DNA of 64,000 nucleotides. Origin: Candidatus Magasanikbacteria bacterium RIFOXYD1_FULL_40_23 (GTDB lineage Bacteria; Patescibacteriota; Patescibacteriia; Magasanikbacterales; GWA2-37-8). Positions within the stretch are counted from its first letter, which is position 1. Each line of letters begins with the position of its first letter. The DNA lies in assembly GCA_001783215.1 (NCBI GenBank), contig MFRA01000005.1:254322-318321 (forward strand), written 5' to 3'. A model generated the notes under the pieces. It saw only the letters and a program-made list of their open reading frames with translations, did not search any database and was not told the DNA's origin. Shown one piece after another: positions 2-60,684 of this stretch. The position numbers and the translations under genes are program-made.

Positions 2-3000
2 GTGGCGTTGTCTTCTTGTATGGAAGGTGAAATTCCTTGGATTTTGCGCAAAGAAGACAATTATGAAAAAGCCAAAAAAGTAGCTTTGGAATACCAAGAT
101 ATTTTTGGGGAAGAAAATTTTTATTTGGAATTAATGGATTTGCCGGCGCTAGAAGGTCAGATGGATTTAAACACAAGGCTTATTGAATTATCCAAAGATA
201 CCGGTATACCATTGGTAGTTACGCGTGATGTGCATTATTTGGAGCCAGACGATGCCGAAGCTCAAGATATACTTACATGTATTCGAGATGGACGAACGCT
301 CGACGAAGACAATCGTATTAGTATGAGCGGAGTGGATTATTCTTTTGTGGCGCCCAAAGAAATTATAAATCGTTTTAAACATGTTCCGGAAGCAGTAAGT
401 AATACTGTAAAAATTGCGGAGCGGGTAAACTTAACCATAGAACTAAACAAATGGCATTTTCCTGCTTTGGATATTCCAGATGGCAAGACCGCCGACGATT
501 ATTTACGTGAGCAGGTGTATGAAAAATTACCGCAGCGCATAGAAATGACAGAGGAAGTAAAAAAACGCGCAGATTATGAATTGGGTATTATTGCGACCAA
601 AGGTTATTCGCCATATTTTTTATGCGTGGCCGACTATATTGGTTATGCCAGAGACAATCGTATTATGGTGACCACCCGTGGTTCGGCAGCCGGTTCGGTA
701 GTGTCGTTTGCTATGGGGATTGTGATGGATAATCCGCTTTATTTTAAATTACCATTTGAAAGATTTTTGAATCCTTTTCGCCCTAGTCCGCCAGATATCG
801 ACGGTGACTTTGCCGATGACAAACGCGATGAGATGATTGCCTATGTAACCAAAAAATATGGGGCCGACAAGGTGGCTCAAATTATTACTTTTGGTACGAT
901 GGCGGCGCGCGGAGCTGTGCGAGATGTGGGTCGCGCCCTGGGTTATTCTTATTCTTTTTGTGATCAGGTATCCAAACTTATTCCATTTGGCGCGCAAGGG
1001 TTTCAGATGACGCTGCTAAAAGCGCTAGACTTGGAGCCGGAGTTAAAAAAATTATATCAAAAAAATGCAGAAGTAAAACGATTAATTGATTTGGCGCAAA
1101 AAGTAGAAGGTTGTGCTCGTCATACTTCTATTCATGCGGCCGGTGTTGTTATTTCTCCAACACCGCTTACAGATTTTACACCGGTGCAGCTGGAAACCGG
1201 GGGAGACAAAGTAGTAACTCAATACGAAATGCATTCAGTAGAGGCTGCCGGAGTTTTGAAAATGGATTTTTTGGGTATTCGTAACTTATCTATTTTAGGA
1301 AATGCCATTGAAATTATCGAAAAAACTACAGGTCAAAAAATAAATGTATATAATTTATATCCTTGGAACGATGCAAAGACATATGAGATGTTGGCGCGCG
1401 GAGAAACCGTAGGTGTGTTTCAACTTTCTAGTTCTGGTATGACCAGGTACCTCAAAGAGCTTAAGCCAGCTTCTATTTTTGATATCATGGCGATGGTGGC
1501 CTTATTTCGTCCTGGCCCTATGGACTCTATTCCAGACTATATTCAAAGAAAAAATAATCCAGATTTAATCCAGTACGAAGACCAAAGAATGAAAGAATAC
1601 CTCGATCAGTCACTGGGGCTTATTGTTTACCAAGACGATGTTTTGCTTACTGCTATAAATTTGGCCGGTTATAACTGGGAAGAAGCAGATAAATTCCGTA
1701 AAGCCATGGGTAAGAAAATTCCCGAAGAAATGGCAAAGCAAAAAGAAAAGTTTTATAAAGGAGCCAAGGAATTTGGCAAAGTTCCATCCGAAAAAATCGA
1801 TAGGCTTTGGGAGAGAATTGAACCGTTTGCAGCGTATGGTTTTAATAAAGCCCATGCAGCCAGTTATGCGGTAGTGGCTTATCAAACTGCTTATCTAAAA
1901 GCCAACTTTCCGGTGCAGTATATGACCGCCGTTCTAATTGCAGAAAGTGGCGATATAGATAAAGTGCCGGAAATTATCCATGAATGTGAAAGAATGGGTG
2001 TAAAAGTTTTACCCCCAGATATAAATGAGAGCTTTAAAAACTTTGCCATGATTCCGGCCAAGGATGGCGAACCAGCCTACATCCGTTTTGGTTTAAACGG
2101 CATTAAAAATTTGGGAGAAAATATTGCTGAAGCTATTTATCGTGAGCGTAAAGAAAATGGCAGGTTCAAAGATCTCCAGAGCTTTTTAACTAGAGTAAGT
2201 CATAAAGATTTAAATAAGAAATCTTTAGAAAGCTTAATCAAGTGCGGCGCTTTAGATGGTTTTGATTACGATCGTGGATTTTTGTTTGGTAATATAGAAA
2301 ATATTTTATCTTTTGTTAAGCAGATTCGTGAGCATAGCTCGGTTAGTCAGCATTCTTTGTTTTCGGGCACCAGCATAGATATGTCTTCCAAATTAAAATT
2401 AGAAGAAAAACCAAACGCTACCGAAGCCGAAAAACTTTCTTGGGAAAAAGAGTTGCTTGGATTTTATATTACCTCCCATCCATTTAATGCCTATCAAAAA
2501 ATAATGAGTAGTGTGCTTATTCCTTTAAAAGATTTGTCTGGCCAACCTCGTAATACTTGGGTGGTGGTGGGTGGTATGTTGGATTCTACCAAGAAAAAAA
2601 TTACTCGTAGCGGCAAAGCTATGATGTTTGCCAAACTACTCGACACCACCAGCAGTTTGGAACTGTTGGTGTTTCCAAAAACTTATGAAACCACCAAGGA
2701 TATTTGGGTAGAGGGAAGGCCGGTTTGTGTGATTGGAAGAACTTCGGAAGAAGAAGGCGACGACAAATTATTTGTAGAAAAAGCTTATGTGCTTACTCCG
2801 GAAAATGCGGCCTTGCTTACCAAGCAAATGTCTTTTGGTAAAAGCCATGGTACCAAACCAATGCTCGATGCGCCAGATAAAGAATTCAAAGAAGTATTTG
2901 AAATTACGGTTAGTGCCGATCAAATAAAATCCAAAAGTGATATTATAAAAAGTATATTCGATAAGTTTCCTGGAGAAAAACAGGCCATTATTAAGGTCGG

Positions 3001-3079
3001 ATCAAAAATTATAAAAACTTCTTATAATGTAGACGGTTGTGAAGAGTTAAAAAAAGAACTCGAAGAAGCTCTTGTTTAA
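2..3079 (+). CDS. dnaE: DNA polymerase III alpha subunit, C-terminal 1025 aa; the N-terminus (PHP domain) lies upstream of the window
   Basis: Long ORF open at the window edge. Characteristic PolIIIalpha blocks are present (GYSPYFLCVADYIGYARDNRIMVTTRGSAAGSVVSFAMGI, FNKAHAASYAVVAYQTAYLKANFP) plus a C-terminal OB-like region. Confidence 0.9.
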   Translation: MALSSCMEGEIPWILRKEDNYEKAKKVALEYQDIFGEENFYLELMDLPALEGQMDLNTRLIELSKDTGIPLVVTRDVHYLEPDDAEAQDILTCIRDGRTLDEDNRISMSGVDYSFVAPKEIINRFKHVPEAVSNTVKIAERVNLTIELNKWHFPALDIPDGKTADDYLREQVYEKLPQRIEMTEEVKKRADYELGIIATKGYSPYFLCVADYIGYARDNRIMVTTRGSAAGSVVSFAMGIVMDNPLYFKLPFERFLNPFRPSPPDIDGDFADDKRDEMIAYVTKKYGADKVAQIITFGTMAARGAVRDVGRALGYSYSFCDQVSKLIPFGAQGFQMTLLKALDLEPELKKLYQKNAEVKRLIDLAQKVEGCARHTSIHAAGVVISPTPLTDFTPVQLETGGDKVVTQYEMHSVEAAGVLKMDFLGIRNLSILGNAIEIIEKTTGQKINVYNLYPWNDAKTYEMLARGETVGVFQLSSSGMTRYLKELKPASIFDIMAMVALFRPGPMDSIPDYIQRKNNPDLIQYEDQRMKEYLDQSLGLIVYQDDVLLTAINLAGYNWEEADKFRKAMGKKIPEEMAKQKEKFYKGAKEFGKVPSEKIDRLWERIEPFAAYGFNKAHAASYAVVAYQTAYLKANFPVQYMTAVLIAESGDIDKVPEIIHECERMGVKVLPPDINESFKNFAMIPAKDGEPAYIRFGLNGIKNLGENIAEAIYRERKENGRFKDLQSFLTRVSHKDLNKKSLESLIKCGALDGFDYDRGFLFGNIENILSFVKQIREHSSVSQHSLFSGTSIDMSSKLKLEEKPNATEAEKLSWEKELLGFYITSHPFNAYQKIMSSVLIPLKDLSGQPRNTWVVVGGMLDSTKKKITRSGKAMMFAKLLDTTSSLELLVFPKTYETTKDIWVEGRPVCVIGRTSEEEGDDKLFVEKAYVLTPENAALLTKQMSFGKSHGTKPMLDAPDKEFKEVFEITVSADQIKSKSDIIKSIFDKFPGEKQAIIKVGSKIIKTSYNVDGCEELKKELEEALV

Positions 3080-3086
3080 GAGTAGG

Positions 3087-4187
3087 TTATTTAGCTAGCT
3101 TCCAATTTGGATCGGCTTTTATTTTTTTCCAAGAAGTAAAATCTTTTTGTTTTGCGTGATGGTATCCGGCCACGGCAATCATAGCCCCATTATCCATAGA
3201 GTATTTTAGTTCTGGGAGTTGGAAGCGGGTGTTAGGGAAGTTGGCAGTAATTTCTGATTGTAGAGTTTCGCGCAGTTTTTTGTTGGCGCTTACTCCGCCG
3301 CATAGAATAATTGTTTTTGGTTTGTATTCTGCTGCAGCAGTCATAGTTTTGGCTACCAGCACATCTATAATCGCTTGCTCAAAACTGGCGCAGAAATCAT
3401 TTATATTCAAAGATTCTTTATTGTCACGCAGCCAATAAAGAGCGGAAGTTTTTAGGCCGGAAAAACTAAAATTATAATCTTTGCTGTTAAGCATCGGTCT
3501 AGGGAATTTTATTGCTTCGGTGTTGCCAGTTAGTGCAAGTTTAGAAATTTGCGGTCCGCCAGGGTAGGGTAGTCCGATTAATTTTGCACCTTTATCAAAA
3601 CATTCTCCGGCCGCATCGTCTATGGTAGCGCCAAGCAGTTTGTATTTGCCGTGATCTTTCATAATAATAAGTTCGGTGTGTCCGCCGCTTACCACCAAAC
3701 ATAGAGCTGGAAATTGTAAATCCGTTTTGTCATTCTGAGGCGCAGACGAAGAATCCCTTTTGTCCGACCGAGAGGGATCCTTCACTCTGTTCAGGATGAC
3801 AGTGTCGTAGTTTTTTATTTGGGTAGAATAAATATGTCCTTCTATATGGTTTGTAGAAACCAAAGGCAGGTCTGTTATATAAGACAGTGTGCGGGCAGCT
3901 TCTACACCTACCAATAATCCAGTGATAAGTCCTGGTCCAGAAGTAACAGCTACAGCGTCTGGTTTTGGTTGATTTTCTAACACCGCTTCTATAAGCGGTA
4001 CAATTTTTTCGGCATGCATACGGCCGGCAATTTCTGGAACTACGCCGCCATATTTTTTGTGTACATCAATTTGAGAAGCGGTTTTTTCGGACAAAATAAA
4101 ACAGCCTTTATCGGAGCAGTCTAGCAAGGCTACGGAAGTGTCATCACAAGATGATTCAATACCGAGTATTCGCATATTTATAACCAA
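3087..4187 (-). CDS. tsaD: tRNA N6-adenosine threonylcarbamoyltransferase TsaD (Kae1/Gcp family). Likely true start is the second Met (MRILGIESSCDD, about 4175). Carries an in-frame ~26-aa insertion from a palindromic repeat.
   Basis: MRILGIESSCDDTSVAL, HIEGH, VSGGHTELI and DNGAMIA motifs. Relative to E. coli TsaD (recalled from memory), the HIEGH-to-VSGGH spacing is ~26 aa longer, and that stretch coincides with the repeat at 3728-3801. Confidence 0.88.
   Translation of the reverse strand: MVINMRILGIESSCDDTSVALLDCSDKGCFILSEKTASQIDVHKKYGGVVPEIAGRMHAEKIVPLIEAVLENQPKPDAVAVTSGPGLITGLLVGVEAARTLSYITDLPLVSTNHIEGHIYSTQIKNYDTVILNRVKDPSRSDKRDSSSAPQNDKTDLQFPALCLVVSGGHTELIIMKDHGKYKLLGATIDDAAGECFDKGAKLIGLPYPGGPQISKLALTGNTEAIKFPRPMLNSKDYNFSFSGLKTSALYWLRDNKESLNINDFCASFEQAIIDVLVAKTMTAAAEYKPKTIILCGGVSANKKLRETLQSEITANFPNTRFQLPELKYSMDNGAMIAVAGYHHAKQKDFTSWKKIKADPNWKLAK
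3728..3801. repeat. Family-A palindromic element, copy 1, in frame inside tsaD (encodes ...NRVKDPSRSDKRDSSSAPQNDKTD...)
   Basis: tgtcattctgaggcgcagacgaagaatcccttttgtccgaccgagagggatccttcactctgttcaggatgaca. The ends gtcattctga / tcaggatgac are inverted repeats with a central GGATCC. Matches copies at 14967, 51288, 52651, 59991 and 60612. Confidence 0.85.
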
Positions 4188-4440
4188 GTTTGTCTAGGAT
4201 ATGTGCAAGTTGAATTTTTAATTCAGAGTGTCCCTTACCACCTTTTAGGTATTTTTCTCTTTGTCGAGCATCGTCTTCGTGTAAATATCCTTCGTAATAA
4301 ATTAGACGTATAGGCCTTCTATGTTTAGTTGCTAAAACAAACCCAGATTTATGTTTAAGTATTCTCTTTTTTAAATCGGAAGTAAACCCAATATAAAGTT
4401 TACCATCTTTTTGGCAATACAAAATATATACGTAGTACAT
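4156..4440 (-). CDS. GIY-YIG nuclease family protein (UPF0213-like)
   Basis: YVYILYCQKDGKLYIGFTSDLKKRILKH fits the GIY-YIG pattern Y..Y...DG.LYIG.T.DL.KR...H. 94 aa. Overlaps the annotated tsaD start by ~30 nt. Confidence 0.8.
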   Translation of the reverse strand: MYYVYILYCQKDGKLYIGFTSDLKKRILKHKSGFVLATKHRRPIRLIYYEGYLHEDDARQREKYLKGGKGHSELKIQLAHILDKLGYKYANTRY

Positions 4441-5946: not shown

Positions 5947-5975
5947 TTGACTTTTTTCTCTAAATATAGTAGAAT
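5947..5975 (+). promoter_or_regulatory. Candidate sigma-70-type promoter for tRNA-Glu (-35 TTGACT, 17-bp spacer, -10 TAGAAT)
   Basis: TTGACT at 5947-5952 and TAGAAT at 5970-5975, with the tRNA 5' end at 5991. Confidence 0.4.
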
Positions 5976-5990
5976 ATTTTCACAATTAAT

Positions 5991-6062
5991 GGTCTCATCG
6001 TCTAATGGTTAGGACATTGCCCTTTCAAGGCGAAAATACGGGTTCAATTCCCGTTGGGACTA
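5991..6062 (+). tRNA. tRNA-Glu (anticodon UUC)
   Basis: GGTCTCA TC GTCT AATGGTT AGGAC A TTGCC CTTTCAA GGCGA AAAT ACGGG TTCAATT CCCGT TGGGACT A. Canonical cloverleaf similar to bacterial tRNA-Glu, with anticodon TTC at 6024-6026. Confidence 0.85.
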
Positions 6063-6069
6063 CAAATAA

Positions 6070-6098
6070 AAACAGGCACTTTGGTGTCTGTTTTTATT
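6070..6098 (+). terminator. Rho-independent terminator after tRNA-Glu
   Basis: acaggcac-tttg-gtgtctgt hairpin followed by tttttatttg. Confidence 0.5.
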
Positions 6099-6099
6099 T

Positions 6100-6233
6100 G
6101 TTATGGGCATCAACGGGAATTGAAGGGAAAGGGTGAAAACGGGAGTTTTCACTTTGCCGAGGAAAGTTCATGAAAACCCGAAGGTTTTTATGAGAGCCCG
6201 CTTGCGGGCGATCAATGCCCTAGTTGGGACTAC
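6100..6233 (+). other. Structured non-coding tract containing an inverted copy of the tRNA-Glu T-arm and a degenerate direct copy of the tRNA 3' end (att-scar-like). Possibly a small ncRNA.
   Basis: 6107-6122 caacgggaattgaag is the reverse complement of the tRNA T-arm gttcaattcccgttg. 6214-6233 gatcaatgccctagttgggactac resembles the tRNA 3' end ggttcaattcccgttgggactac. Several hairpins are present: gtgaaaac-ggga-gttttcac, gaaaacc-cgaa-ggttttt, gcccgc-ttgc-gggc. Confidence 0.3.
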
Positions 6234-6273
6234 TTAACAAAACACCATCACTAATATGATGGTGTTTTCGTGT
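6229..6273. repeat. Direct repeat DR-1 (terminator-like hairpin) at the left edge of the RSD cassette
   Basis: actacttaacaaaacaccatcactaatatgatggtgttttcgtg; about 90% identical to 8869-8914. Confidence 0.7.
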
Positions 6274-6481
6274 AAGGTTACAGGCGTAATTGAGTTTGCC
6301 ACTTCACTTTTTTCTTTTTTAAGACTATTTTAGATTTTTGTTCGTTTCTTCTCTTTGTTGACAGGCAAATAACGGTTTGATTCCGGCTGGACTCTGGTCA
6401 TAAAAATAAGTATATTACTTGCAGATACTTTGTGATTAAGATAGTATAAAGTCCAAAGTATCAAATTTAAGATTAAATGGT

Positions 6482-7387
6482 ATGGGTGAAATTTATACAC
6501 AAACATTAAAATATTTCTACATTGCGATTATTAGATTTTTGCCGCTTTTGAAAACGCTCGAAGTATCTGTGTTAGAGAAAAATGATAAAGCAGAAGTATC
6601 AGATCTTATTGAAATGTATTCAGACATAGAAGTACAGATCGACAAACTTGGTTTGAGTTTTCGTGAACCAAATAAGCGACACCTTGGGGAGCCAGTTGAA
6701 GTAAAAAACTGGTTGGATGAAGGTGTAATAGAAAATTTAAGCAGACTATCTATTCGTCTTTTAATTTCATGGAAAGAAGAGTTAAAAAATTTGCAAGAAA
6801 AAAAATATCTTACTGATGGAAACAAAGAAAGAATTAGTTATTTGGAAGACCGTATCTGGCCACTTGAGGCTTTATCCAAAGACCCTAATTACGTTATTGG
6901 TAAGTATGCTGATAAAGGACCCTTGGAATTTCCCGGTGAAAATAAGGTAAAAAAATCTAGTCCAGAAGTCATAGTTGAAGATGGAAAAGGGATTATTTTT
7001 TCCAAGGACCTAACATCTAAAATATCTGCCGATTTAGGAGGGCTGTGTAATGAGTTTAATTTTAATTATCAAAATAAAAAACCAAATGCAGGATTGCTTC
7101 TATTAAGGCGAATTTTACCCTTGGCCATTGTGCGTAAATTTCAAGCTCTGAATAGAGAGCTTGAAATTAAAAAGCCAGATGGTGATTTTTTAGACACAAA
7201 AGGTTTACTCGGACAAGTTGAAAAGTTACTTAGCAACAAGCGAATTTATAAAGAAATTGAGGGGTATAAGTTATTGATTGATAGTTCTCAGCATTCTTAC
7301 TCTCTAAATGTGGACGATTCGGATGTAGAGGGTGCCGCTATCAAGATTAGAGTTCTGTTGGATGATTTATTTTACAACCATAAGTGA
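6482..7387 (+). CDS. Hypothetical protein (301 aa), 5' partner of the RSD gene. No recognisable domain.
   Basis: The ORF ends in TGA at 7385-7387, overlapping the annotated GTG start at 7384 and 5 nt before ATG 7393. No HD/SpoT-hydrolase or Nudix motif. Confidence 0.55.
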   Translation: MGEIYTQTLKYFYIAIIRFLPLLKTLEVSVLEKNDKAEVSDLIEMYSDIEVQIDKLGLSFREPNKRHLGEPVEVKNWLDEGVIENLSRLSIRLLISWKEELKNLQEKKYLTDGNKERISYLEDRIWPLEALSKDPNYVIGKYADKGPLEFPGENKVKKSSPEVIVEDGKGIIFSKDLTSKISADLGGLCNEFNFNYQNKKPNAGLLLLRRILPLAIVRKFQALNRELEIKKPDGDFLDTKGLLGQVEKLLSNKRIYKEIEGYKLLIDSSQHSYSLNVDDSDVEGAAIKIRVLLDDLFYNHK

Positions 7388-8823
7388 TTGTTATGCTAAA
7401 CGCTGATCAAGTTAAAAAGGACTATCAAAATTTAAAGCCATTTTATGAAAAATTTCAGACGGAAGTCTGTGGTTTTCTTTTAACTGTTAAAGAAAAACAC
7501 GCTGCTTCAGTTGACGTATCTTCCATTTTGGAAAGGCAGGATGGGATAAAGAAGCTTGAATCAATTGAGGATAATATACGAGAAAAGCCAGAAAAATATC
7601 AGGATTTAAATGAATTGTCCCAAATTAATGATGTGGCGGGCGTTCGCATTACCTGCCATTGTCAAAGTGATCGCGAGGTTCTTTTTAATATATTGGGTGG
7701 TGAGATTTTGCAGCAGCAGGAATATATTGATGTGGATGGTCAGGAGAAGGACGGCATTTATCGAGCCTATCACTATAATTTTAGTAAGATTTTTGATACT
7801 CCTATAGGCAGAAAAAAGCTTTCGTGTGAAGTGCAGCTCAGGACCGTGTTGGGCGATGCTTGGGCAAAGCAAGATACAAAGTATGTATATAAAAAGATTA
7901 GTGAAGGTGAGCCGCATGTTCTGTCTAAGGCAATTTCTGATATTTTAAACAGCTGTGAGGCATTGTGGGATTTGGTAAAGGAAAAAACTAGAACAGATTC
8001 TGGTGATTCTAAAAGACCGCAAGCTGAAATTATTAAATTGAGTGAAAAAATTAAGATGGTTGGAGATCAGATAAAAATAAAAGAAAAAGATAGTAATTTA
8101 ACGGAATGGCTTAAACATCATCAGTTAGTAGCTAAAAAGGGTTTAACCGACGCTGAGGTTATTACTTTTATGGAGGTAGAAATACTATTGCCGTTAAGTG
8201 AGCTAAACTTGGCTAAAACAAAGCTCAATGATGTGGCTAGAGAAGCACCTATACGTACTTTTGGTTGGCCGATAGCGCTCTATTTGGAAAGGGATGAGTA
8301 CAGACCGAAGGTTTTAAAGGACGGTATTGTGGCTGAAATAAAAACAAATGATCGTGATCTTAACGGGAAACATAGGGCATGGACTTATGACTACTGGACA
8401 ATACGTACAGATGGATCCTTTTATCTAGCTAAAAGCCTTTTTGAAAATACAAGGAAACCAACACACATATTTTTTGATACGCGAATTATTCGTACTACAG
8501 AAGTATTAATGTATGCTTTAAATCTTTATTCTGCTCTTGGTGTTCCGGAAGATCAGAGGCTTACCGTAAAAATACGGTATAGTGGTATCAATGGTAAAAA
8601 ATTAGGTGCCGCTGGTAACAGGCTGATTCATGATTATCGTATTTGTCATGAAAATGATATTGAAATGGAGATAACAGCAAGTATGAAAGAACTAAGTGAA
8701 GAAATGAGTGTTTGCGTTGGAAAGCTAACAGCACCACTATTTGAGCTCTTTGATTTTTTTGCCGTTAGTCAAGAAGTTTTATATGGGATAGTTAATAATT
8801 ACCGAAAGGGGATTATTACCTAG
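7384..8823 (+). CDS. RelA/SpoT-synthetase-domain (RSD) nucleotidyltransferase with a ~280-aa C-terminal extension of unknown function; toxSAS/CapRel-like candidate. True start may be ATG 7393.
   Basis: Motifs match (p)ppGpp-synthetase-fold signatures: RQDGIKKLESIEDNIREKPEKY (GRxKxxxSIxxKxxRK-like), INDVAGVRITC (DxxGxRII), YRAYHY (YRSLH-like), EVQLRTVLGDAWAKQDTKYVYK (ELQIRTxxMHxWAExxHDxxYK). Confidence 0.8.
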   Translation: MIVMLNADQVKKDYQNLKPFYEKFQTEVCGFLLTVKEKHAASVDVSSILERQDGIKKLESIEDNIREKPEKYQDLNELSQINDVAGVRITCHCQSDREVLFNILGGEILQQQEYIDVDGQEKDGIYRAYHYNFSKIFDTPIGRKKLSCEVQLRTVLGDAWAKQDTKYVYKKISEGEPHVLSKAISDILNSCEALWDLVKEKTRTDSGDSKRPQAEIIKLSEKIKMVGDQIKIKEKDSNLTEWLKHHQLVAKKGLTDAEVITFMEVEILLPLSELNLAKTKLNDVAREAPIRTFGWPIALYLERDEYRPKVLKDGIVAEIKTNDRDLNGKHRAWTYDYWTIRTDGSFYLAKSLFENTRKPTHIFFDTRIIRTTEVLMYALNLYSALGVPEDQRLTVKIRYSGINGKKLGAAGNRLIHDYRICHENDIEMEITASMKELSEEMSVCVGKLTAPLFELFDFFAVSQEVLYGIVNNYRKGIIT

Positions 8824-8868
8824 GTTATTCAGCGGAGGTTAAAAAAGTTTGCCAAGTGTCTTGATCAA

Positions 8869-8914
8869 CACTACTTAACAAAAAACACCTTCACTAAAAT
8901 GATGGTGTTTTTGT
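8869..8914. repeat. Direct repeat DR-2 (terminator-like hairpin) at the right edge of the RSD cassette
   Basis: actacttaacaaaaaacaccttcactaaaatgatggtgtttttgtt; about 90% identical to DR-1 with a 2-nt indel. Confidence 0.7.
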
Positions 8915-14940: not shown

Positions 14941-14966
14941 ACAAACTATTTATTAATTAATTTAAC

Positions 14967-15040
14967 TGTCATTCTGAGCAAGGCGAAGAATCTCTTTCGT
15001 TTGGATGTAAAGGGATCCTTCATTACATTCAGGATGACAA
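14967..15040. repeat. Family-A palindromic element, copy 2 (intergenic)
   Basis: tgtcattctgagcaaggcgaagaatctctttcgtttggatgtaaagggatccttcattacattcaggatgacaa. Confidence 0.85.
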
Positions 15041-23002: not shown

Positions 23003-23085
23003 TATATAGGGGCTAAAGCCACATATATGCTCATTCACTCAGAAATAAATAAGTTTACTTATTTATTTCTTCATTCATTTCGCAT
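23003..23085 (+). repeat. Family-C leader module, copy 1, ending at the start codon of the 23086 gene
   Basis: tatataggggctaaagccacatatatgctcattcactca + palindrome gaaataaataag-ttt-acttatttatttc + ttcattcatttcgcat + ATG. Confidence 0.75.
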
Positions 23086-23496
23086 ATGAAAGAATTTTTT
23101 GTTAGCTTATTTGTAATTATATTTGTAGCAGCGGTAGTTGTGTTTGGAGTTTTTCCTCCGAAGGTTTATGTTACATTTATTTCTGCGCAGAATAGTGTCT
23201 TGGCTGCAGAGCAAAAACAAATTACAGATGCTTTGCTTTGGCAATATAGTTATAATCCTTTGCGAGTAGGGCGAGAGTACCAGATAAATATGCCTAGCCC
23301 CGCACCCTTGAAAAATCCGGCAAAACAAGATTACCAATATTTTATTTGGGCAAGTGTAAAATCCCTATCTTTTGTAAAAGAATCAGAAGCAGGGGATAAT
23401 ACTTGGAATTTGGTTTTGGCAAAAGATAAAAATGGCAACTGGAAAATTGTAGCTGACAAGCTTTGTTGCGGGCAAGGGGTTGATGAATGGTATTAA
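23086..23496 (+). CDS. Hypothetical membrane-anchored protein
   Basis: N-terminal TM FFVSLFVIIFVAAVVVFGVF. 136 aa. Confidence 0.5.
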   Translation: MKEFFVSLFVIIFVAAVVVFGVFPPKVYVTFISAQNSVLAAEQKQITDALLWQYSYNPLRVGREYQINMPSPAPLKNPAKQDYQYFIWASVKSLSFVKESEAGDNTWNLVLAKDKNGNWKIVADKLCCGQGVDEWY

Positions 23497-26740: not shown

Positions 26741-26826
26741 AAACGAAATGAGTGAGCAAAGTAATAAGCCTGCTTAATTACTTTCGAGCGAATGAGTATA
26801 TATGCAGCTTTAGCCCATATATAGTA
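26741..26826 (-). repeat. Family-C leader module, copy 2, ending at the truB start codon (minus-strand orientation)
   Basis: Minus-strand read tatatgggctaaagctgcatatatactcattcgctc + palindrome gaaagtaattaagc-agg-cttattactttg + ctcactcatttcgttt + ATG(truB). Confidence 0.75.
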
Positions 26827-35723: not shown

Positions 35724-38700
35724 ATGGTAAAAAGTTTTTTAAATTTTTTCTTTCATTATTCAGGGGCTGTTTTTCGAATTAAGCGCCATATTTTGGAAGC
35801 GGACAAATGGTACAAATCAGTATTTTTTTCATTGATACTATTTTTTGTTGAATTTATTTTTGTAGTTATTTCTTTGCCTTTTTATTTTTTAATTTCTCCC
35901 AAAAATCTGCATGAGCGTGGATTTATATTTCCTTCATCCAAAGATGATTCAATGGCCTTTAAACATTTTGTTGCTAGGCGCAAGATAAGCGCAATTACCC
36001 TTATTAGCGTTTCGGCAGTTTGGGCGTTTAAAGTCTTTTTGTTGGGAGCAATTTCTTATATTTTTTTTGGAGCCGCGCAGATTTTTGCAGATACGCATAC
36101 GTGGGTATTTTCAAATCCTAGTAGTTATACTTATAATTCGTCTCTCGTAGAGGTGGCTGGGGGAGAGGCAAGACTAAAAGATATTGGTGGCACCACTATA
36201 GTTACTACTACTAACCCAGGATTTAATAGTAATGCCACTGGTTGGACTTATGCCGATTGGAATCAGAGTGGTGGAGAGGTAAATGTGGCTGGTACCCGTA
36301 TAACTACTGGTGGTAATCCTGGTGGATGGGTGAGAATTAATTTTCCTATTGGCAATGGCGATGAGTTGGGCGGATATTATCGTCAACCGTTTGTTATTAG
36401 CTTATCTAACCCGTCTACCACTGTTAGTTTTGATTGGCAGGTTTTGGCGCACGATTCTACGCCCGCGCCTGTTACTTTTAAGATGATGGTGTTTGTAGAT
36501 AGGGCAAGTAGCGTTCCTGTAATAGGTCAGGAAGTTTGGTCTTCTGGAGAAATTACTTCTACCAGCACTTGGCAATCAATTTCCAATTTGGATGTTTCGT
36601 CCAAAGTAACTAGCACGGGCACGTATTATCTAAAAGTAGCTGTTTGGCTAGAAACACCTGGTTCAAACACGGGTCCGTTTACTATTGGTTATGATAATAT
36701 TTTGTTAACCTCTGCCAGTACATCCCATGTATTTTCTTCGTCATTACCATCTATTGCGCCAAACACATCTCTTTCTGATACAAAAATTGTAAGTTGGAAT
36801 TCGTTTAGTGAAACCGCCATAAAAAATGGCGGGCAAATTTATTATCAATTATCCGATGATGATGGTGTTAGTTGGAAATATTGGAATGGTTCGTCTTGGG
36901 CAGCGGCTGCCACAACCACTAATTCCAACACTTCTTCTGTTATAAATGCTCATATTTCATCTTTCACCACCAGTACAAATCAAATAAAATGGAAAGGATT
37001 TTTATCGAGTGACGGAACTCAGCAGGTAAGTTTGAGCGCCATTAATATTGATTACACATCAAACAACCGTCCTGCTGTTCCAAGCATATCTGCCAGCCAA
37101 CAAACAAGCGATGGGTTGGTTAATGTAAATTATATTTTGCAAGATGCAGAAAGCGATCTGTCTAGTTTGTCTGCTTATGAATATTCATTTGATTTGGAAA
37201 ATTGGTTTGTAATGACAGCTGCAGTTTCAGATCCGGAGCATAGTGGAATTAATAATTTACTGTCTTCGCCTGTTGGGGTAGCACATACTTTTGTTTGGAA
37301 TGCATTGGCAGATTTGGGCAGTACATATAATAGTTCAGTTTATGTTCGCTTGCGTGCTAATGATGGCATAGCCGATGGCCCCTACGCCACCTCTACTATT
37401 TTTGCTGTAGATTATGTAGTCCCAACAGTTTCTAATTTATCTGCCGCACAAGATTTGGGTAGTGCTAGCGTGCGTTTTGTTTATGACCTATTTGATAATA
37501 CAAGCAGTGATTTATTTGTGGAATTGTTAATTTCCGATGATGGTGGCAGTACTTGGAATGTGGCTTCCAGTTCAGTGTCGGGCGATGTTGGCGCAGGGTT
37601 ATCTTCTGGCACAAACAAAACTATTACATGGCAGGCCGTCGCCGATTTTGTAAATCAGGAGCAAGACGATATGCAGGTACGCATACGCGCTCGTGATAAG
37701 TTTTCCAATCAAGGTAATTTTGTTACTTCAATCAATTTTTTGGTAGACACGCAAGTGCCAACGGTAAATACAACCACCAATTTGTTGGCTCAGCCAAATG
37801 CAGGGGATAGCTCGGTTTTAGTTGGGGGTTCTTTTCATGAATCAAATCCTGGGACCAGTAGTTTTTTTGTGGCTATAAATGGCGGTGATTATGGCGCTGT
37901 TACTTATGGTGAAGGGTACACAGCCTCGCCTTCTCCACAGCTTGTTAGCATGGGTGCGCCACTTACTGGTGCAGATTATATTTCCAAAGTATCTTTGTCT
38001 TTAGAAGATAAGTATGGTCATACCGGGCAAAACGAAAATACTTCTCCAGAAAGTTCTTATAAATATGTAAAGCCTTATACTCCACCAGCACCCGCTATAA
38101 GCAATCCGCAATCCAGTACTTTGGATTTAGTAATAAGTAAGCATGCAGACGAAATTGACGGTCTGGAGTATGCAATTTTTGAAGGTTCACAATCAAAATA
38201 TATACAAGACGACGGAACTTTAGGTGATAGCCCTGTTTGGAAATCTTTGGGAACTGGTGTTGGGCAGTGGGGCGAAGGTGGCGAAGCAGGCAAGGTGATT
38301 ATACAAAATTTGAGTCAACCAATTTCTGCATATGTATTCCAAATAAAATCTAGAAATATTAGTGATTCGTTTCATGCGGCTAGCAGCGAGAGTGGTTTGT
38401 CTGGTGGTGCTTCTTTATCTTATATTTCCCCATCTATTAACATATCAATCAGTTCTTTGGCGCAAACTGCGGATGGTACAAAGTATGTGCCAATTAGTTA
38501 TTCCGGTGCGGATGCGCAAAGCAATTTAAATAGTTTGGTGGTTTACGAATACTCTACAGACAATACGACGTGGCAGACGATGACAGAGAAAACAGGTGTA
38601 GGATCGGATGGAAAAAATAATTTAGTTTTTGCTCCGGCTGGCACCGAACATATGTTTGCTTGGGATGTGGGGGCTGATTTATCTGGTGTAGAATTTTCTA

Positions 38701-43189: not shown

Positions 43190-43416
43190 TATAGGGGCTA
43201 AAGCCCGCGGCGCGCTCACTCATTTCGATTATATGGGCTAAAGCCACATATATACTCATTCGCTCATAAATAATTTCATTAGAAAATAATTGAGCAAGCT
43301 CATTATTTTCTCACTCATTATTTAACTCACTCACTTCGTATATATAGTTAAACATATATTTTCACTCACTCGGAAATAAATAAGCAAGCTCATTTATTTC
43401 CTCATTCATTTCAAAT
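43190..43416 (+). repeat. Family-C leader module, copy 3 (tandem, with an extra truncated head), ending at the start codon of the 43417 response regulator
   Basis: ataggggctaaagcc-cgcggcgcg-ctcactcatttcg, then tatatgggctaaagccacatatatactcattcgctca ... palindrome ggaaataaat-aagcaagctc-atttatttcc + tcattcatttcaaat + ATG. Numerous TCACTCA/TCATTCA reiterations. Confidence 0.75.
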
Positions 43417-43788
43417 ATGAAAAAAATTCTTATAGTAGAGGACGAATTGGCGTTATTGTATGCTTTAGCATCTCAGTTTGATAAAAAAGAATTTAAAGTT
43501 CTTCAGGCTGTGGATGGCGAAGAAGGCTTAAAAACTGCCCTAAAGTCACATCCGGATTTAATTTTATTGGACTTGCTTATGCCGAAAATGGATGGCATGT
43601 CTATGTTAAAAGAATTGCGCAAGGATTCTTGGGGTAAGGGTGTAAAAGTAATAATTTTAACCAACCTAAGTGATGCAGAAAAAATTGATGAAGCGTTAAA
43701 GCAGGGGACATATGATTATTTAGTAAAAAAAGATTGGAACATTTCCGAAGTAATTGAAAAAGTGAAAGCTAGTCTGGGTATGAAATAG
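43417..43788 (+). CDS. Single-domain response regulator (CheY-like receiver)
   Basis: KILIVEDE...LLDLLMPKMDGMSMLKELR...KVIILTNL...YDYLVKK. Confidence 0.85.
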   Translation: MKKILIVEDELALLYALASQFDKKEFKVLQAVDGEEGLKTALKSHPDLILLDLLMPKMDGMSMLKELRKDSWGKGVKVIILTNLSDAEKIDEALKQGTYDYLVKKDWNISEVIEKVKASLGMK

Positions 43789-50917: not shown

Positions 50918-52263
50918 TTTTGCAAGAAGTTCAACATGTGTTAGCGTTGTTGTTTTTGTTTTTGCTGCCATGGCAAACCAGATATATTTGGAAGTATGGC
51001 CAATTAAATGGCGGCTATTGGGAGTATGGCACGGGCAGTCTGTATGTAACAGAGATTTTATTGTGGGTTATTTTGGTATTATTTTTTGTTAATAATTTTT
51101 TAAAGAAAGAAGTTTGGGTCGGTTTGTTTAAAAATAAAAATGTTTTTTCTTTGGTGTTCGCTGGGTTTTTAGCTGTGGTGGGCGCATCAGTAATGTTGAG
51201 CGAAAATTTTGGCATCTCCTATAATTATATTTTCCGTATTTTGGAGGGCATGGCCATAATGACGGTGCTGTTTCGGAGCGGGCAGTCTGTCATCCTGAAC
51301 GGAGTGAAGGATCCCTTAAACACAAATGAAAGGGATTCTTCGGTCGCTTTTCTTCCTCAGAATGACAGATATGTAGTTGCTATTTGGCTTGGCGCGGTAG
51401 GGCAGGGAGCGCTGGCGATTTATCAGTTTTTGACCCAGCATGTTTTTGCCAGCAAGTGGCTAGGTATGGCAGCGCAAGAGTCGTACAACTTGGGCCCAAG
51501 CGTAATACAATTTGCTGACCAGAGGTGGTTGCGCGCCTACGGTAGTTTTGGTTCGCCAAATTCTTTGGGGATTTATTTGGCTGTGTTATTTGTATTAGGT
51601 TTTATTTTATATTTTAAAACGCAAATACCGCGCTATAAAATTTTAATTAGCGTAGGTCAATTATTTATTTTATCTGGATTGTTGCTTTCTTTTTCTCGCG
51701 GGGCGTGGTTGGCAGCTTTGGTTGGTCTGGCATCTCTTTTTATTGTTTTATTTTTTAAACAAAAAGATTTTTTACGAGATTTTATAAAACAGATCGTATT
51801 TGCTTTGGGTGTAGCTATATTTTGGATTATTATTTTTTATCCAGTTTTTAACGCCAGATTTAATTTGCAAAATCGTTTGGAAGCCACGTCTGTTTCCGAA
51901 AGAAAAGGGCAGTATAGCGAATCTTTATCTTTTATTAAATTAAATCCAATTTTTGGGGTTGGGCCGGGCGTATATACTTTTGCTTTGGCCAAAAAATATC
52001 CAGATTTAGCTTCGTGGCAGCTGCAGCCAATACATAATATTTATTTACTTATTCTCGTAGAGATGGGCATATTTGGTATGTTGGCTATATTTTTATCAGT
52101 TGCCAGTATTGCTAGACTGATACTTAAAAATAACTTAATTTACGCACCAGTTTTGACGGCTTTGTTTGCTTCTGGAATGCTAGATCATTGGTTGGCCAGC
52201 CTGTTTACAGGCATGGTTTTTTGGTGGGTAGTCTTGGGTTTAGGCCTAAAAAAGAACCCTTGA
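50893..52263 (+). CDS. O-antigen ligase/polymerase-like (Wzy_C-type) polytopic membrane protein carrying an in-frame Family-A repeat
   Basis: About 10-12 TM helices with a periplasmic loop containing RGAWLAALVGL-type Wzy_C features. Inserted peptide VILNGVKDPLNTNERDSSVAFLPQNDRYV. Confidence 0.55.
   Translation: MEKQNRGLILQEVQHVLALLFLFLLPWQTRYIWKYGQLNGGYWEYGTGSLYVTEILLWVILVLFFVNNFLKKEVWVGLFKNKNVFSLVFAGFLAVVGASVMLSENFGISYNYIFRILEGMAIMTVLFRSGQSVILNGVKDPLNTNERDSSVAFLPQNDRYVVAIWLGAVGQGALAIYQFLTQHVFASKWLGMAAQESYNLGPSVIQFADQRWLRAYGSFGSPNSLGIYLAVLFVLGFILYFKTQIPRYKILISVGQLFILSGLLLSFSRGAWLAALVGLASLFIVLFFKQKDFLRDFIKQIVFALGVAIFWIIIFYPVFNARFNLQNRLEATSVSERKGQYSESLSFIKLNPIFGVGPGVYTFALAKKYPDLASWQLQPIHNIYLLILVEMGIFGMLAIFLSVASIARLILKNNLIYAPVLTALFASGMLDHWLASLFTGMVFWWVVLGLGLKKNP
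51288..51368. repeat. Family-A palindromic element, copy 3 (in frame in the Wzy-like gene)
   Basis: tgtcatcctgaacggagtgaaggatcccttaaacacaaatgaaagggattcttcggtcgcttttcttcctcagaatgacag. Confidence 0.85.
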
Positions 52264-59739: not shown

Positions 59740-60622
59740 TGAAGATTATCTAAAGCATCTTTGCCAAAAATACAGCCTTACCCCGTCCAAAAAATATGGG
59801 CAGAATTATTTGGTAAATCCAGAGCCGATAGAAAAAATGGTAAATGCAGCAGAAATTAAAAAAGACGATGTGGTAGTAGAAGTGGGTCCGGGATTTGGCG
59901 TTCTTACGTTAGCTTTGGCAGAAAAGGCAAAAAAGGTAATTTCATTTGAAATTGAAAAAAAATTGACGACCTACTGGAAAAATATTACAGGTCATCCTGA
60001 ACGGAGTGAAGGATCCCTCTTGGCGAACGAAAGGGATTCTTCGGCAGAGCCTCAGAATGACAAATACAAGAATATAGAAATAGTTTGGGGAAATATATTA
60101 TACGAATTTAAAGGTGATGGATTAAAAGCGGGGGAGTACAAAGTAGTAGCCAATTTACCATACCAAATTACTTCGCATGTAATTAGGAAATTTTTGGAAA
60201 TGGAAAACAATCCAGATATGCTGGTGCTTATGGTGCAAAAAGAGGTAGCCGAAAGAATTTGTGCGCAAGCAGGTGATATGTCTGTTTTGGCGGTATCTGT
60301 TCAATATTATGGCAAGCCAGAGATTGTCACTTTTGTGCCACGTTCATCTTTTTGGCCAATGCCGGCGGTGGATTCGGCAGTAATAAAGATAAAAATAAAT
60401 AAAGATAATGCAGGTGCTAAAAATAATAGCGAATCTTTTTTCAAGCTTGTAAAAGCTGGTTTTTCTAGTCGTAGAAAAATGCTTATCAAAAATCTAAGCG
60501 CGGTAGCGGACAGGCAAGCTCTACGCAACCTATTTAAAGAACTGGGTATAGACGAAAAGGTGCGAGCGCAAGAATTAAGCGTGGAGCAGTGGAAAGAAAT
60601 AGTTGCCAAATTGTCATTCTGA
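59714..60622 (+). CDS. rsmA: 16S rRNA (adenine1518/1519-N6)-dimethyltransferase RsmA/KsgA. Has an in-frame Family-A repeat, and its last residues plus stop codon come from a second repeat copy.
   Basis: YGQNYLVNPE, VVEVGPGFGVLTLAL, NLPYQITS. Inserted peptide GHPERSEGSLLANERDSSAEPQNDKYKN. C-terminal ...KLSF-TGA lies inside ttgtcattctga. Confidence 0.85.
   Translation: MYMSQKLFNEDYLKHLCQKYSLTPSKKYGQNYLVNPEPIEKMVNAAEIKKDDVVVEVGPGFGVLTLALAEKAKKVISFEIEKKLTTYWKNITGHPERSEGSLLANERDSSAEPQNDKYKNIEIVWGNILYEFKGDGLKAGEYKVVANLPYQITSHVIRKFLEMENNPDMLVLMVQKEVAERICAQAGDMSVLAVSVQYYGKPEIVTFVPRSSFWPMPAVDSAVIKIKINKDNAGAKNNSESFFKLVKAGFSSRRKMLIKNLSAVADRQALRNLFKELGIDEKVRAQELSVEQWKEIVAKLSF
59991..60062. repeat. Family-A palindromic element, copy 4 (in frame in rsmA)
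   Basis: gtcatcctgaacggagtgaaggatccctcttggcgaacgaaagggattcttcggcagagcctcagaatgaca. Confidence 0.85.
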
Positions 60623-60684
60623 AAGAAGTGGGAGAGCTCCTTTTAAAGTTTAAGGGATCCTTCGCTGCTGTGGCGGCTCAGGAT
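60612..60684. repeat. Family-A palindromic element, copy 5 (partial; spans the rsmA stop codon and the downstream hairpin)
   Basis: ttgtcattctgaaagaagtgggagagctccttttaaagtttaagggatccttcgctgctgtggcggctcaggatgg, then hairpin ggtttttgc-ttgcgac-agcaaaaacc. Confidence 0.7.

Follow-up and report, generated by a model that had tools for sequence, protein, structure and literature searches.

A 170-nt structured unit behind a Patescibacteria tRNA-Glu gene as a probable miniature insertion element of tRNA 3' ends

Directly downstream of a tRNA-Glu(UUC) gene, in the 64-kb stretch of Candidatus Magasanikbacteria DNA analysed here (the window), lies a hairpin-rich tract at positions 6064-6233. The most probable reading, to which we assign a probability of roughly 0.55, is that it represents one copy of an insertion element of miniature size, devoid of genes and targeted specifically to the 3' ends of tRNA and transfer-messenger RNA (tmRNA) genes. 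The tract is one discrete 170-nt unit, made up of a terminator-shaped hairpin (t), an inverted tRNA half (A'), a hairpin core (H), and a direct repeat of the tRNA 3' half (A). Evidence comes from an exact empty site in a close relative, from homologous units behind other tRNA genes, and from compensatory base changes in the core; from these we infer the function and mode of movement of the unit. Below, "unit" denotes window 6064-6233 or a homologous copy, and Lxxx a retrieved locus.

Layout of the tRNA-Glu locus and its downstream tract

The tRNA gene and the parts of the unit lie at the following window positions.

5947-5975, plus strand: promoter-like site of the tRNA-Glu gene, TTGACT-17-TAGAAT, 10 of 12 consensus positions
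5991-6063, plus strand: tRNA-Glu(UUC), by ARAGORN and at 65.1 bits by the Rfam tRNA model; CCA not encoded
6043-6063, plus strand: A, the 3' half of tRNA-Glu and the segment that is repeated, from the sequence
6064-6099, no strand: t, a palindromic hairpin with the shape of a bidirectional intrinsic terminator (A-run, GC stem, T-run), from sequence and fold
6100-6124, plus strand: A', the inverted copy of the tRNA 3' half, exact over 14 nt (6111-6124), with a decayed outer part
6115-6200, plus strand: conserved core H, comprising GGGAAUUGA, GGGAAAGG, hp1, the linker UUGCCGAGGAAAG, hp2, and GAGAGC, from the covariance model
6133-6152, plus strand: hairpin hp1, loop GGGA, from the fold
6169-6192, plus strand: hairpin hp2, loop CGAA, from the fold
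6196-6209, plus strand: hp3, a variable third hairpin, GCCCG-CUUG-CGGGC with loop CUUG, from the fold
6210-6233, plus strand: distal degenerate direct copy of the tRNA 3' end, GATCAATGCCCTAGTTGGGACTAC, the right boundary of the insert

The site at 5947-5975 is the sole promoter-like site placed to transcribe the tract; a promoter scan found none inside 6064-6233, and the unit of the window holds no open reading frame (ORF). The arms of t form a perfect palindrome of 16 bp, although a simple terminator scan did not report this hairpin. The inner 14 nt of A', CAACGGGAATTGAA, are the exact reverse complement of TTCAATTCCCGTTG (tRNA 6043-6056), and the inverted copy as a whole is the outer part of a quasi-palindrome with arms of ~40 nt (6043-6124) centred at the terminator loop. 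A purine-rich run separates A' from the hairpins, and at the other end the distal copy is adjoined by TTAAC and then by a hairpin at 6239-6268 that belongs to a longer repeat, DR-1.

Both tRNA-like copies stand above chance. The direct copy aligns to the tRNA 3' end over TCAATgCCC--GTTGGGACTAC, the extended alignment beginning at 6212, and includes an exact block of 11 nt (6223-6233, equal to tRNA 6053-6063) whose other exact occurrence in the window is a single one, in a coding region at 37416. Its local alignment score of 28 was reached by 4 of 2000 dinucleotide shuffles, and the maximum among 274 window chunks, used as a real-sequence control, was 22. The inverted copy also scores 28, which 2 of 2000 shuffles reached. 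An earlier note on this DNA had described both copies and named a shuffled-sequence test as one that could refute its reading. The degenerate direct copy before DR-1 is thus borne out at 6210-6233; the inverted copy is likewise real and exact over 14 nt, but the coordinates given for it, 6107-6122, were off by 3-4 nt (true position 6111-6124). On each side of the insert there is thus a direct repeat matching the 3' part of the tRNA, and the tRNA itself is left intact.

The region 6064-6275 folds at -84.8 kcal/mol (z = -7.55 against shuffles), and the three stable hairpins that the earlier note had remarked on appear in the fold as hp1, hp2, and hp3. The predicted fold also has a helix of 16 bp (-14.2 kcal/mol) between A' (6100-6124) and the distal A (6210-6233), which joins the three hairpins in a closed four-way junction; in other units this helix reaches up to 22 bp. 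In every unit, the tRNA's own 3' half is a better pairing partner for A' than the distal copy is.

Empty and occupied sites

Four relatives syntenic at TsaD (88, 83, 78, and 76% TsaD identity) all have the order DnaE-TsaD-tRNA-Met-(210-aa gene)-tRNA-Glu, and none of them has the unit. In the closest, L055 (TsaD 88%), AAACACCTTCATGCAAATGATGGTGTTTTCGTGTAAGGTTACAGG stands 6 nt downstream of tRNA-Glu and is orthologous to the DR-1 hairpin of the window plus the 25 nt after it. The hairpin and its continuation CGTGTAAGGTTACAGG thus follow tRNA-Glu in L055 and the distal copy in the window. Because tRNA-Glu directly precedes the DR-1 orthologue in L055, the extra DNA of the window corresponds exactly to 6064-6233, and the native terminator of tRNA-Glu is the DR-1 hairpin. 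The search of relatives for the ancestral 3' flank that the earlier note had proposed therefore yielded an exact empty site. The flank 3' of the distal copy is orthologous to the sequence directly 3' of tRNA-Glu in L055, and the distal copy is most likely the displaced original tRNA end. By contrast, t is missing from the empty site of L055, where the native terminator follows the tRNA, while an equivalent hairpin is present in every family member; t arrived as part of the insert. Gain (or retention) of the unit here placed it in front of the native tRNA-Glu terminator.

A second pair of loci repeats this pattern. L025 is empty and L027 occupied; their downstream flanks are ~90% identical, and the difference between them is ~186 nt, bounded by CCCGTTGGGGCTAC. 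Of eight TsaD-syntenic genomes, just two carry the unit, namely that of the window and L043 (71% TsaD identity), and these two units share 81% DNA identity. Taken with the close similarity of some units behind different tRNAs (described below), this distribution suggests that units have been gained and lost and have spread from one tRNA gene to another, a pattern at odds with simple vertical descent. A search of genome contigs for loci related via the 210-aa neighbour found no relatives, and homologues of a 168-aa neighbour showed no synteny.

We also fetched, via neighbouring genes, 16 contigs of the same population (Candidatus Magasanikbacteria, from the Rifle aquifer and elsewhere). The tract is present in all that cover the region, and the RSD cassette, a gene pair downstream of DR-1 described below, is present and essentially unchanged in all that reach far enough. 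In the strain variant L007 (1090-1135, against window 6064-6125), the terminator loop is flipped from TTTG to CAAA, and three further changes bring the palindrome of tRNA, terminator, and A' nearer to perfection: one corrects a stem mismatch and two bring A' nearer to the tRNA. This pattern is probably the signature of intrastrand template switching in a quasi-palindrome.

A family of units behind different tRNA genes

A scan for the tRNA-Glu 3' end with one genome per species returned ten loci. Among them, L019, a Patescibacteria metagenome-assembled genome with an identical tRNA-Glu, carries two tandem units, each with a tRNA 3'-end copy and a terminator at its end. A degenerate pattern made from blocks common to the window and both L019 copies was then run in one metagenome scan, which gave 18 loci, 13 of them true members. 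These lie directly 3' of tRNA-Glu(UUC), tRNA-Glu(CUC), tRNA-Trp, tRNA-His, tRNA-Gln, an intron-containing tRNA, or a tmRNA-like 3' end, and every copy checked that had enough upstream sequence sits behind a tRNA or a tmRNA-like 3' end.

The order of parts is constant: tRNA 3' half A, terminator hairpin t, A', core H, and direct repeat of A. Across the family, H consists of GGGAAAGG, hp1, the linker UUGCYGAGGAAAG, hp2, GAGAGC, and the variable hp3, at whose position other units have a hairpin of differing sequence and length; in most units GAGUGARAUU stands directly before the repeat. Direct repeats of the tRNA end flank the unit in 12 units besides that of the window, with a period of 168-197 nt and repeat lengths of 8-42 nt. 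Cores are ~75-85% identical among unrelated loci behind different tRNAs. For example, L028 (Glu-CUC) and L029 (Trp) have nearly identical 86-nt cores and ~80% identity over the whole unit, and the first 46 nt are identical between the first L019 unit (L019u1, Glu) and L035 (His). A' follows its local tRNA. It occurs with three T-loop variants (AATTGA, AATCGA, and ATTCGA), and in all 12 units checked that have a recognisable tRNA or tmRNA end it carries the local variant; in L039 the inverted copy is perfect (22 of 22 nt).

Genes 3' of the units are mutually unrelated (the RSD pair, an HD-domain protein, an ArsR-type regulator, an SPFH protein, and others), and many unit-bearing genomes have no RSD cassette. 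With different downstream genes at each locus, the units are unlikely to act in cis as regulators.

Several loci have features of their own. On the minus strand of L019 (3355-4481), an HD-domain gene (Pfam HD, 1.7e-14) comes after the tandem units; on either side of it stand near-identical terminator hairpins, with a decayed remnant of the tRNA end in front of them, an array plan like that of the window. On the 1.9-kb contig L042, two units (100-470 and 1440-1790) flank a 239-aa gene with a weak TPR match; a repeated segment of ~120 nt ending in ACACCGCCA and a terminator precedes each unit and could be a divergent tmRNA-like 3' part, and the first unit has a 39-nt hairpin inserted in its hp2 loop. 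The tRNA upstream of the L039 unit holds a group I intron (1-248; Rfam Intron_gpI, 38.4 bits against a threshold of 50, the match ending at the contig edge). Group I introns within genes for tRNAs are reportedly abundant in Patescibacteria, with which L039 agrees.

Conserved structure of the core

Covariation was assessed on a 14-sequence alignment of the core, over the 18 base pairs of hp1 and hp2 (252 cells). Changes on both sides were found in 12 of the 18 pairs. The proportion of paired cells was 92.9%, against at most 56% when partners were slid, and none of 500 shuffles reached the observed value. Similarly, the covariation score was 0.419, compared with a shuffle mean of 0.187 (0 of 500 reaching the observed score) and at most 0.21 with slid partners. 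The compensatory changes thus exceed the controls, which identifies a conserved structured element. Since A' and A both copy the tRNA, their pairing is no independent evidence of covariation.

Two covariance models agree with the pattern scan. One, R1, recovers every member found by the pattern and one divergent extra copy. The other, R2, was built without the window sequence and matches window 6115-6200 at 82.7 bits (E 1e-19), the only real match in the 64 kb and hence a single copy. As for RNA or DNA, the folds give evidence on both sides: plus-strand folds sum to -852 kcal/mol with 67 G-U pairs, compared with -754 kcal/mol and 20 G-U pairs on the minus strand, where folds are weaker in 14 of 15 units, whereas the covarying pairs of hp1 and hp2 are nearly all Watson-Crick, with G-U in 3 of 252 cells.

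Searches for known families, enzymes, and carriers

Rfam 15, searched over 6050-6290 (241 nt) with E-values up to 10, returned no match, catalytic and intron RNAs included, and ARAGORN and the Rfam tRNA and tmRNA models recognised genuine tRNAs only, not the unit. The candidate small RNA (sRNA) family RF02937 (Clostridiales-2), known from comparative genomics, had no match to the window unit (E up to 10), L036, or L043. In L035, a type-2 unit whose first hairpin (GGCGGGGAAAGUAUUUCCCCGC) resembles this family, the match at 1523-1605 reaches 29.6 bits (E 3e-5 in a 361-nt search), half of the gathering threshold of 58.6. We found zero matches to the unit in viral contigs (IMG/VR, five patterns), INPHARED phages, and PLSDB plasmids (BLAST), and no described equivalent in the literature searched. 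A Xer-like gene at a distance of 3.6 kb from the L044 unit was the sole integrase encountered.

A number of other identities were tried and rejected. Against a group I or T-loop intron, the tract has no Rfam match and the tRNA, which has a terminator of its own, is intact; the tRNA introns described for Patescibacteria are located in the anticodon loop (PMC13011429). The hammerhead-like core CUGAGGA has no accompanying GAAA element and no Rfam match, the RNase P CR-I-like GAGGAAAGUCC occurs in 2 of 15 units only, and a mini-ORF (MKTRRFL) has ACG in place of its start codon in most units. As regards a degenerate convergent tRNA gene, the distal copy corresponds to the tRNA 3' strand including the wobble positions, not to the complement of the 5' strand, and H has no similarity to the reverse complement of the tRNA. 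A casposon-type duplication of 14-15 bp disagrees with the varying repeat length and with element ends that are not mutual inverted repeats. A role as a tRNA-end decoy for an RSD toxin was dropped, with RSD homologues occurring elsewhere without the unit and most units lacking RSD, and neither a CsrA-type GGA sponge nor a C/D-box-like guide had supporting evidence.

Possible recombination at the tRNA 3' end and alternative readings

In tRNA-targeting integrative elements, the incoming element supplies a new tRNA end and the old end is displaced. The unit may have entered in a similar way, by recombination within the segment from T-loop to acceptor; with the terminator and the substitute tRNA 3' end that it would supply, the tRNA would stay functional, and the previous end would be pushed downstream. 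Because the unit encodes nothing, the enzyme would have to act in trans. Pairing of A' with A would close H into a four-way junction, which might serve either as a recombination substrate or as an RNA read through from the tRNA promoter. The repeat running from T-loop to tRNA end, the intact tRNA, the unit's own terminator, the tandem copies, and the empty sites all fit recombination in the tRNA 3' segment. Moreover, A' is perfect in apparently young copies, which suggests that it matters at insertion, as a guide or as an arm of a folded site.

Several observations weigh against an insertion element of this kind. Pfam scans of neighbouring genes found no integrase near the window tract, and tblastn with the Xer-like protein matched nothing in the 64-kb window or the other loci except, in L044, the gene of the query itself. 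The viral, phage, and plasmid collections yielded no autonomous relative, no free form, and no phage or plasmid bearing an attP. Repeat lengths of 8-42 nt are unusual for a single recombinase, and a standard integrase model leaves unexplained why A' is needed and how it comes to be cognate to many tRNAs. Presence and absence, moreover, do not separate insertion from precise deletion between direct repeats, and the pattern with which all members were found was itself derived from the window and L019, so that the invariant blocks are partly a product of ascertainment.

The role of A' could be accounted for by a protein-less mobile element that finds its target by base pairing, A' being either a built-in guide or an arm of a self-folding attachment site; we regard this proposal as quite unlikely. 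A host recombinase or other host enzyme would insert the element at the 3' end of whichever tRNA A' matches, and retargeting to another tRNA would require only a changed A'. In its more specific form, which we hold to be a little more doubtful still and which is built by analogy with the folded single-stranded attP of CTX phage or the integron attC, A' in a single-stranded DNA or RNA form would pair with A or with the target tRNA gene and so make or locate the site of recombination, and a host Xer-type recombinase could insert the unit without an element-encoded integrase. The perfect A' of apparently young copies (L039, 22 of 22) and its outward decay elsewhere fit selection during movement only; the closing helix has an unpaired bubble at the T-loop position, the expected place of crossover; the stems are almost purely Watson-Crick; and no integrase lies nearby. 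The A'-H-A order also resembles, by analogy, one end of a CTX-type integrated element, in which the order is of this kind. On the other hand, an element of 190 nt can neither replicate nor transfer itself, attC sites have variable loops whereas the sequence of H is conserved, most loci have no Xer gene nearby, and the argument rests entirely on analogy, with a hypothetical single-stranded or circular form. Two further accounts appear highly improbable. One, favoured by the earlier note, takes the tract as decayed attachment (att) scars of a once-larger island, its content being a meaningless remnant. Direct repeats of the tRNA end do flank the tract, and there are well-known tandem islands with tRNA or tmRNA ends as their boundaries, such as the ssrA islands of Dehalococcoides (PMC3146451). 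However, the same length, order, and ~75-85% core recur with compensatory changes in unrelated loci behind different tRNAs, and the conserved right junction, GAGUGARAUU-CCC, speaks against the copies being ends of larger deleted islands, since deletion remnants would be ragged. The family alignment and the leave-one-out model largely refute this account. The duplicated tRNA 3' end does mark the boundary of an insertion, as L055 shows, but what lies inside is no degenerate scar: it is a complete member of a conserved family of ~170-190 nt, of which A' is a built-in and constant part. The other account, which we consider equally remote, is an sRNA read from the minus strand and ending at t as a shared bidirectional terminator, with CU-rich stretches resembling an anti-Shine-Dalgarno sequence (CUUUCCUC, CCCUUUCCC) and C(UUCG)G loops. 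A very stable cUUCGg tetraloop on hp2, and in several units also on hp3, is in its favour, as are the good terminator that t makes in both directions and a weak RsaE-like match (22.4 bits, E 0.09 in a 241-nt search) whose score is nonetheless far under the threshold of 79 bits. Yet there is no promoter-like site to the right of the unit, where the DR-1 hairpin abuts in the window, the L019 units are separated by terminators only, and the minus strand folds more weakly in nearly all units, as noted above.

The earlier note's alternative of a tRNA-derived non-coding RNA is still in contention because the tract folds into a conserved structure. As a resident tRNA-trailer RNA, that is, a functional structured RNA made by read-through from the strong tRNA promoter, it seems to us unlikely. 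The A':A helix would copy the acceptor/T-stem stack of a tRNA, RNase P, RNase Z, and the CCA-adding enzyme could yield a stable RNA of ~125 nt in which H replaces the T-loop, and the direct repeat would be the needed tRNA-like 3' end rather than a trace of integration; such an RNA would also be compatible with mobility. The covariation of hp1 and hp2 and the stabler, G-U-richer plus-strand folds argue for it. So do G-U pairs that preserve A':A helices where A' has drifted (L027, L028, and L043), loops that are GNRA-like or CUUG, what may be a conserved tandem G-A internal loop (GGGAAU:AUUCCC to AC:GU) in 9 of 15 units, and the weak match of one type-2 unit to Clostridiales-2. Against it stand the terminator-shaped hairpin t between tRNA and unit and the lack of a promoter-like site inside the tract; in the window, a hairpin shaped like a terminator lies on either side of the unit. 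In the window, L019, L027, and L029, the closing helix has not kept its acceptor part, the nearly pure Watson-Crick covariation is equally apt for DNA hairpins, and the energy advantage of the plus strand may simply reflect its G-rich composition.

The RSD cassette and other features of the window

The DNA downstream of the unit is organised as a separate slot, with the following features.

6229-6271, no strand: left copy of DR-1, formed by the last 5 nt of the tRNA-end copy, TTAAC, and the native terminator hairpin 6239-6268
8870-8914, no strand: right copy of DR-1, formed by ACTAC, TTAAC, and the hairpin
6296-8842, plus strand: variable cargo of the slot, two ORFs, not part of the unit
6482-7387, plus strand: cargo gene, ORF of 301 aa, no family
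7384-8823, plus strand: ORF of 479 aa, RelA_SpoT (Pfam RelA_SpoT 5.5e-12; PADLOC PDC-S33 1.5e-8, weak)

The two copies of DR-1 (43-45 nt) are identical at 40 of 43 positions, with a 2-nt indel. The right copy and its upstream flank (8843-8869) are orthologous to a second hairpin copy in L055, where both copies are thus at orthologous positions and a 186-aa gene and a Lyase_1/ADSL_C gene lie between them. The same hairpin pair with different genes in L055 indicates that the slot predates the species split and that its cargo was exchanged. In addition, the 9-nt direct repeat AGTTTGCCA stands at both edges of the window cargo (6293-6301 and 8846-8854). RSD homologues are rare and occur in varied contexts, including beside restriction-modification genes, with no unit nearby.

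The slot fits an exchange hotspot independent of the tract, and the native tRNA-Glu terminator is now its left boundary. The 170-nt unit and the RSD cassette are separate events at one tRNA-linked hotspot, the slot being the older. The tract therefore does not support the nested integration of the RSD cassette suggested earlier: many units occur without RSD, RSD homologues occur without the unit, and there is no integrase.

Other repeats were observed in the window. A palindromic family (GTCATYCTGA...GAAGRATCCCT) has a copy at 3717-3810 inside tsaD (3087-4187) and others at 14942-15039, 51287-51317, 59991-60087, and 60613-60640. L056 and L057 lack ~66-75 nt at the place of the tsaD copy, TsaD being 340 aa long there and 366 aa in the window, where its Pfam match is split into two stretches. 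This copy looks like an in-frame insertion of a palindromic element, as with the Rickettsia palindromic elements. A further family, TATAGGGGCTAAAGCC...CTCATTCACTCAGAAATAAATAAG with a hairpin, occurs in direct and inverted orientation upstream of genes (23005-23100, 26776-26821, and 43190-43431), and blastn found a related stretch in L057. Small GIY-YIG nuclease genes lie near tRNA genes or the examined loci, at 4156-4440 in the window, where the gene overlaps the tsaD start, and in L044 (oriented 2980-3336), L047 (722-970), and L055 (14585-14887).

Significance and comparison with known systems

To our knowledge, few non-coding RNA families have been characterised in Patescibacteria. The family described here is absent from Rfam 15 and from the literature searched, and would give these bacteria a further candidate structured motif, RNA or DNA, whose covariation is real. 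If the insertion-element reading is correct, very small Patescibacteria genomes carry tiny structured elements that colonise many tRNA 3' ends while leaving the tRNAs intact, and the unit would be a testable case of a site-specific, gene-less element, with the cognate inverted tRNA half as an experimental handle. For annotation, it would be a warning that partial tRNA copies beside tRNA genes need not be prophage scars.

The unit shares with the 3'ETS-leuZ sponge, mascRNA, tRNA-snoRNA dicistrons, and the tRNA-like domain of YrlA its place directly 3' of a tRNA, and its 3' strand is an acceptor/T-stem strand, so tRNA-processing enzymes could act on it. In contrast to such tRNA-derived RNAs, it has an intervening terminator-shaped hairpin, no mimic of a T-loop or D-arm, and no conserved acceptor-like pairing. 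The Clostridiales-2 family has two hairpins, a purine-rich AGGAGG-like linker, and a preceding GGGG run in common with it, and the L035 unit aligns over the whole RF02937 model, while the window and the other type-1 units have no match; Clostridiales-2 may be a distant Firmicutes relative of the type-2 units.

Like miniature inverted-repeat transposable elements (MITEs) and REP-like repeats (Correia, RUP, REPIN, and Rickettsia palindromic elements), the unit is small, non-coding, hairpin-rich, and patchily distributed. It has the terminal inverted segments of a MITE in A' and A, although these arms, atypically, copy the target tRNA. Unlike these repeats, it has a strict target in the tRNA 3' end, its flanking repeat is long and target-derived rather than a short fixed duplication, and its copy number appears low (one in 64 kb). 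With integron attC sites and the CTX-phage attP, sites used by IntI or XerCD, it has in common an imperfect long hairpin with a stem imitating the target duplex and a compatible geometry, as well as the order of inverted arm, loop, and direct arm at the insert end, a site that needs no integrase inside, and tandem arrays. Here, however, the loop H is conserved in sequence, and a tRNA gene takes the place of attI or dif as target.

The closest parallels are with the integrase islands and prophages at tRNA and tmRNA ends and with their derivatives that are flanked by att sites but lack an integrase (cis-mobilizable elements, CIMEs), which also show tRNA-end repeats, an intact tRNA, empty and occupied sites, tandem copies (as in L019), and an identity block running from the T-loop to the tRNA end. 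Measured against a tRNA-targeting tyrosine-integrase element, the locus has the repeats and the empty and occupied sites but no adjacent integrase. It differs further from the islands and CIMEs in its length of ~170-190 nt without genes or an integrase in the vicinity, in serving many tRNAs with one core family, and in its variable repeat length. New in this family are its small size without genes, a core that is conserved and covaries, and an inverted tRNA half that is both obligatory and cognate.

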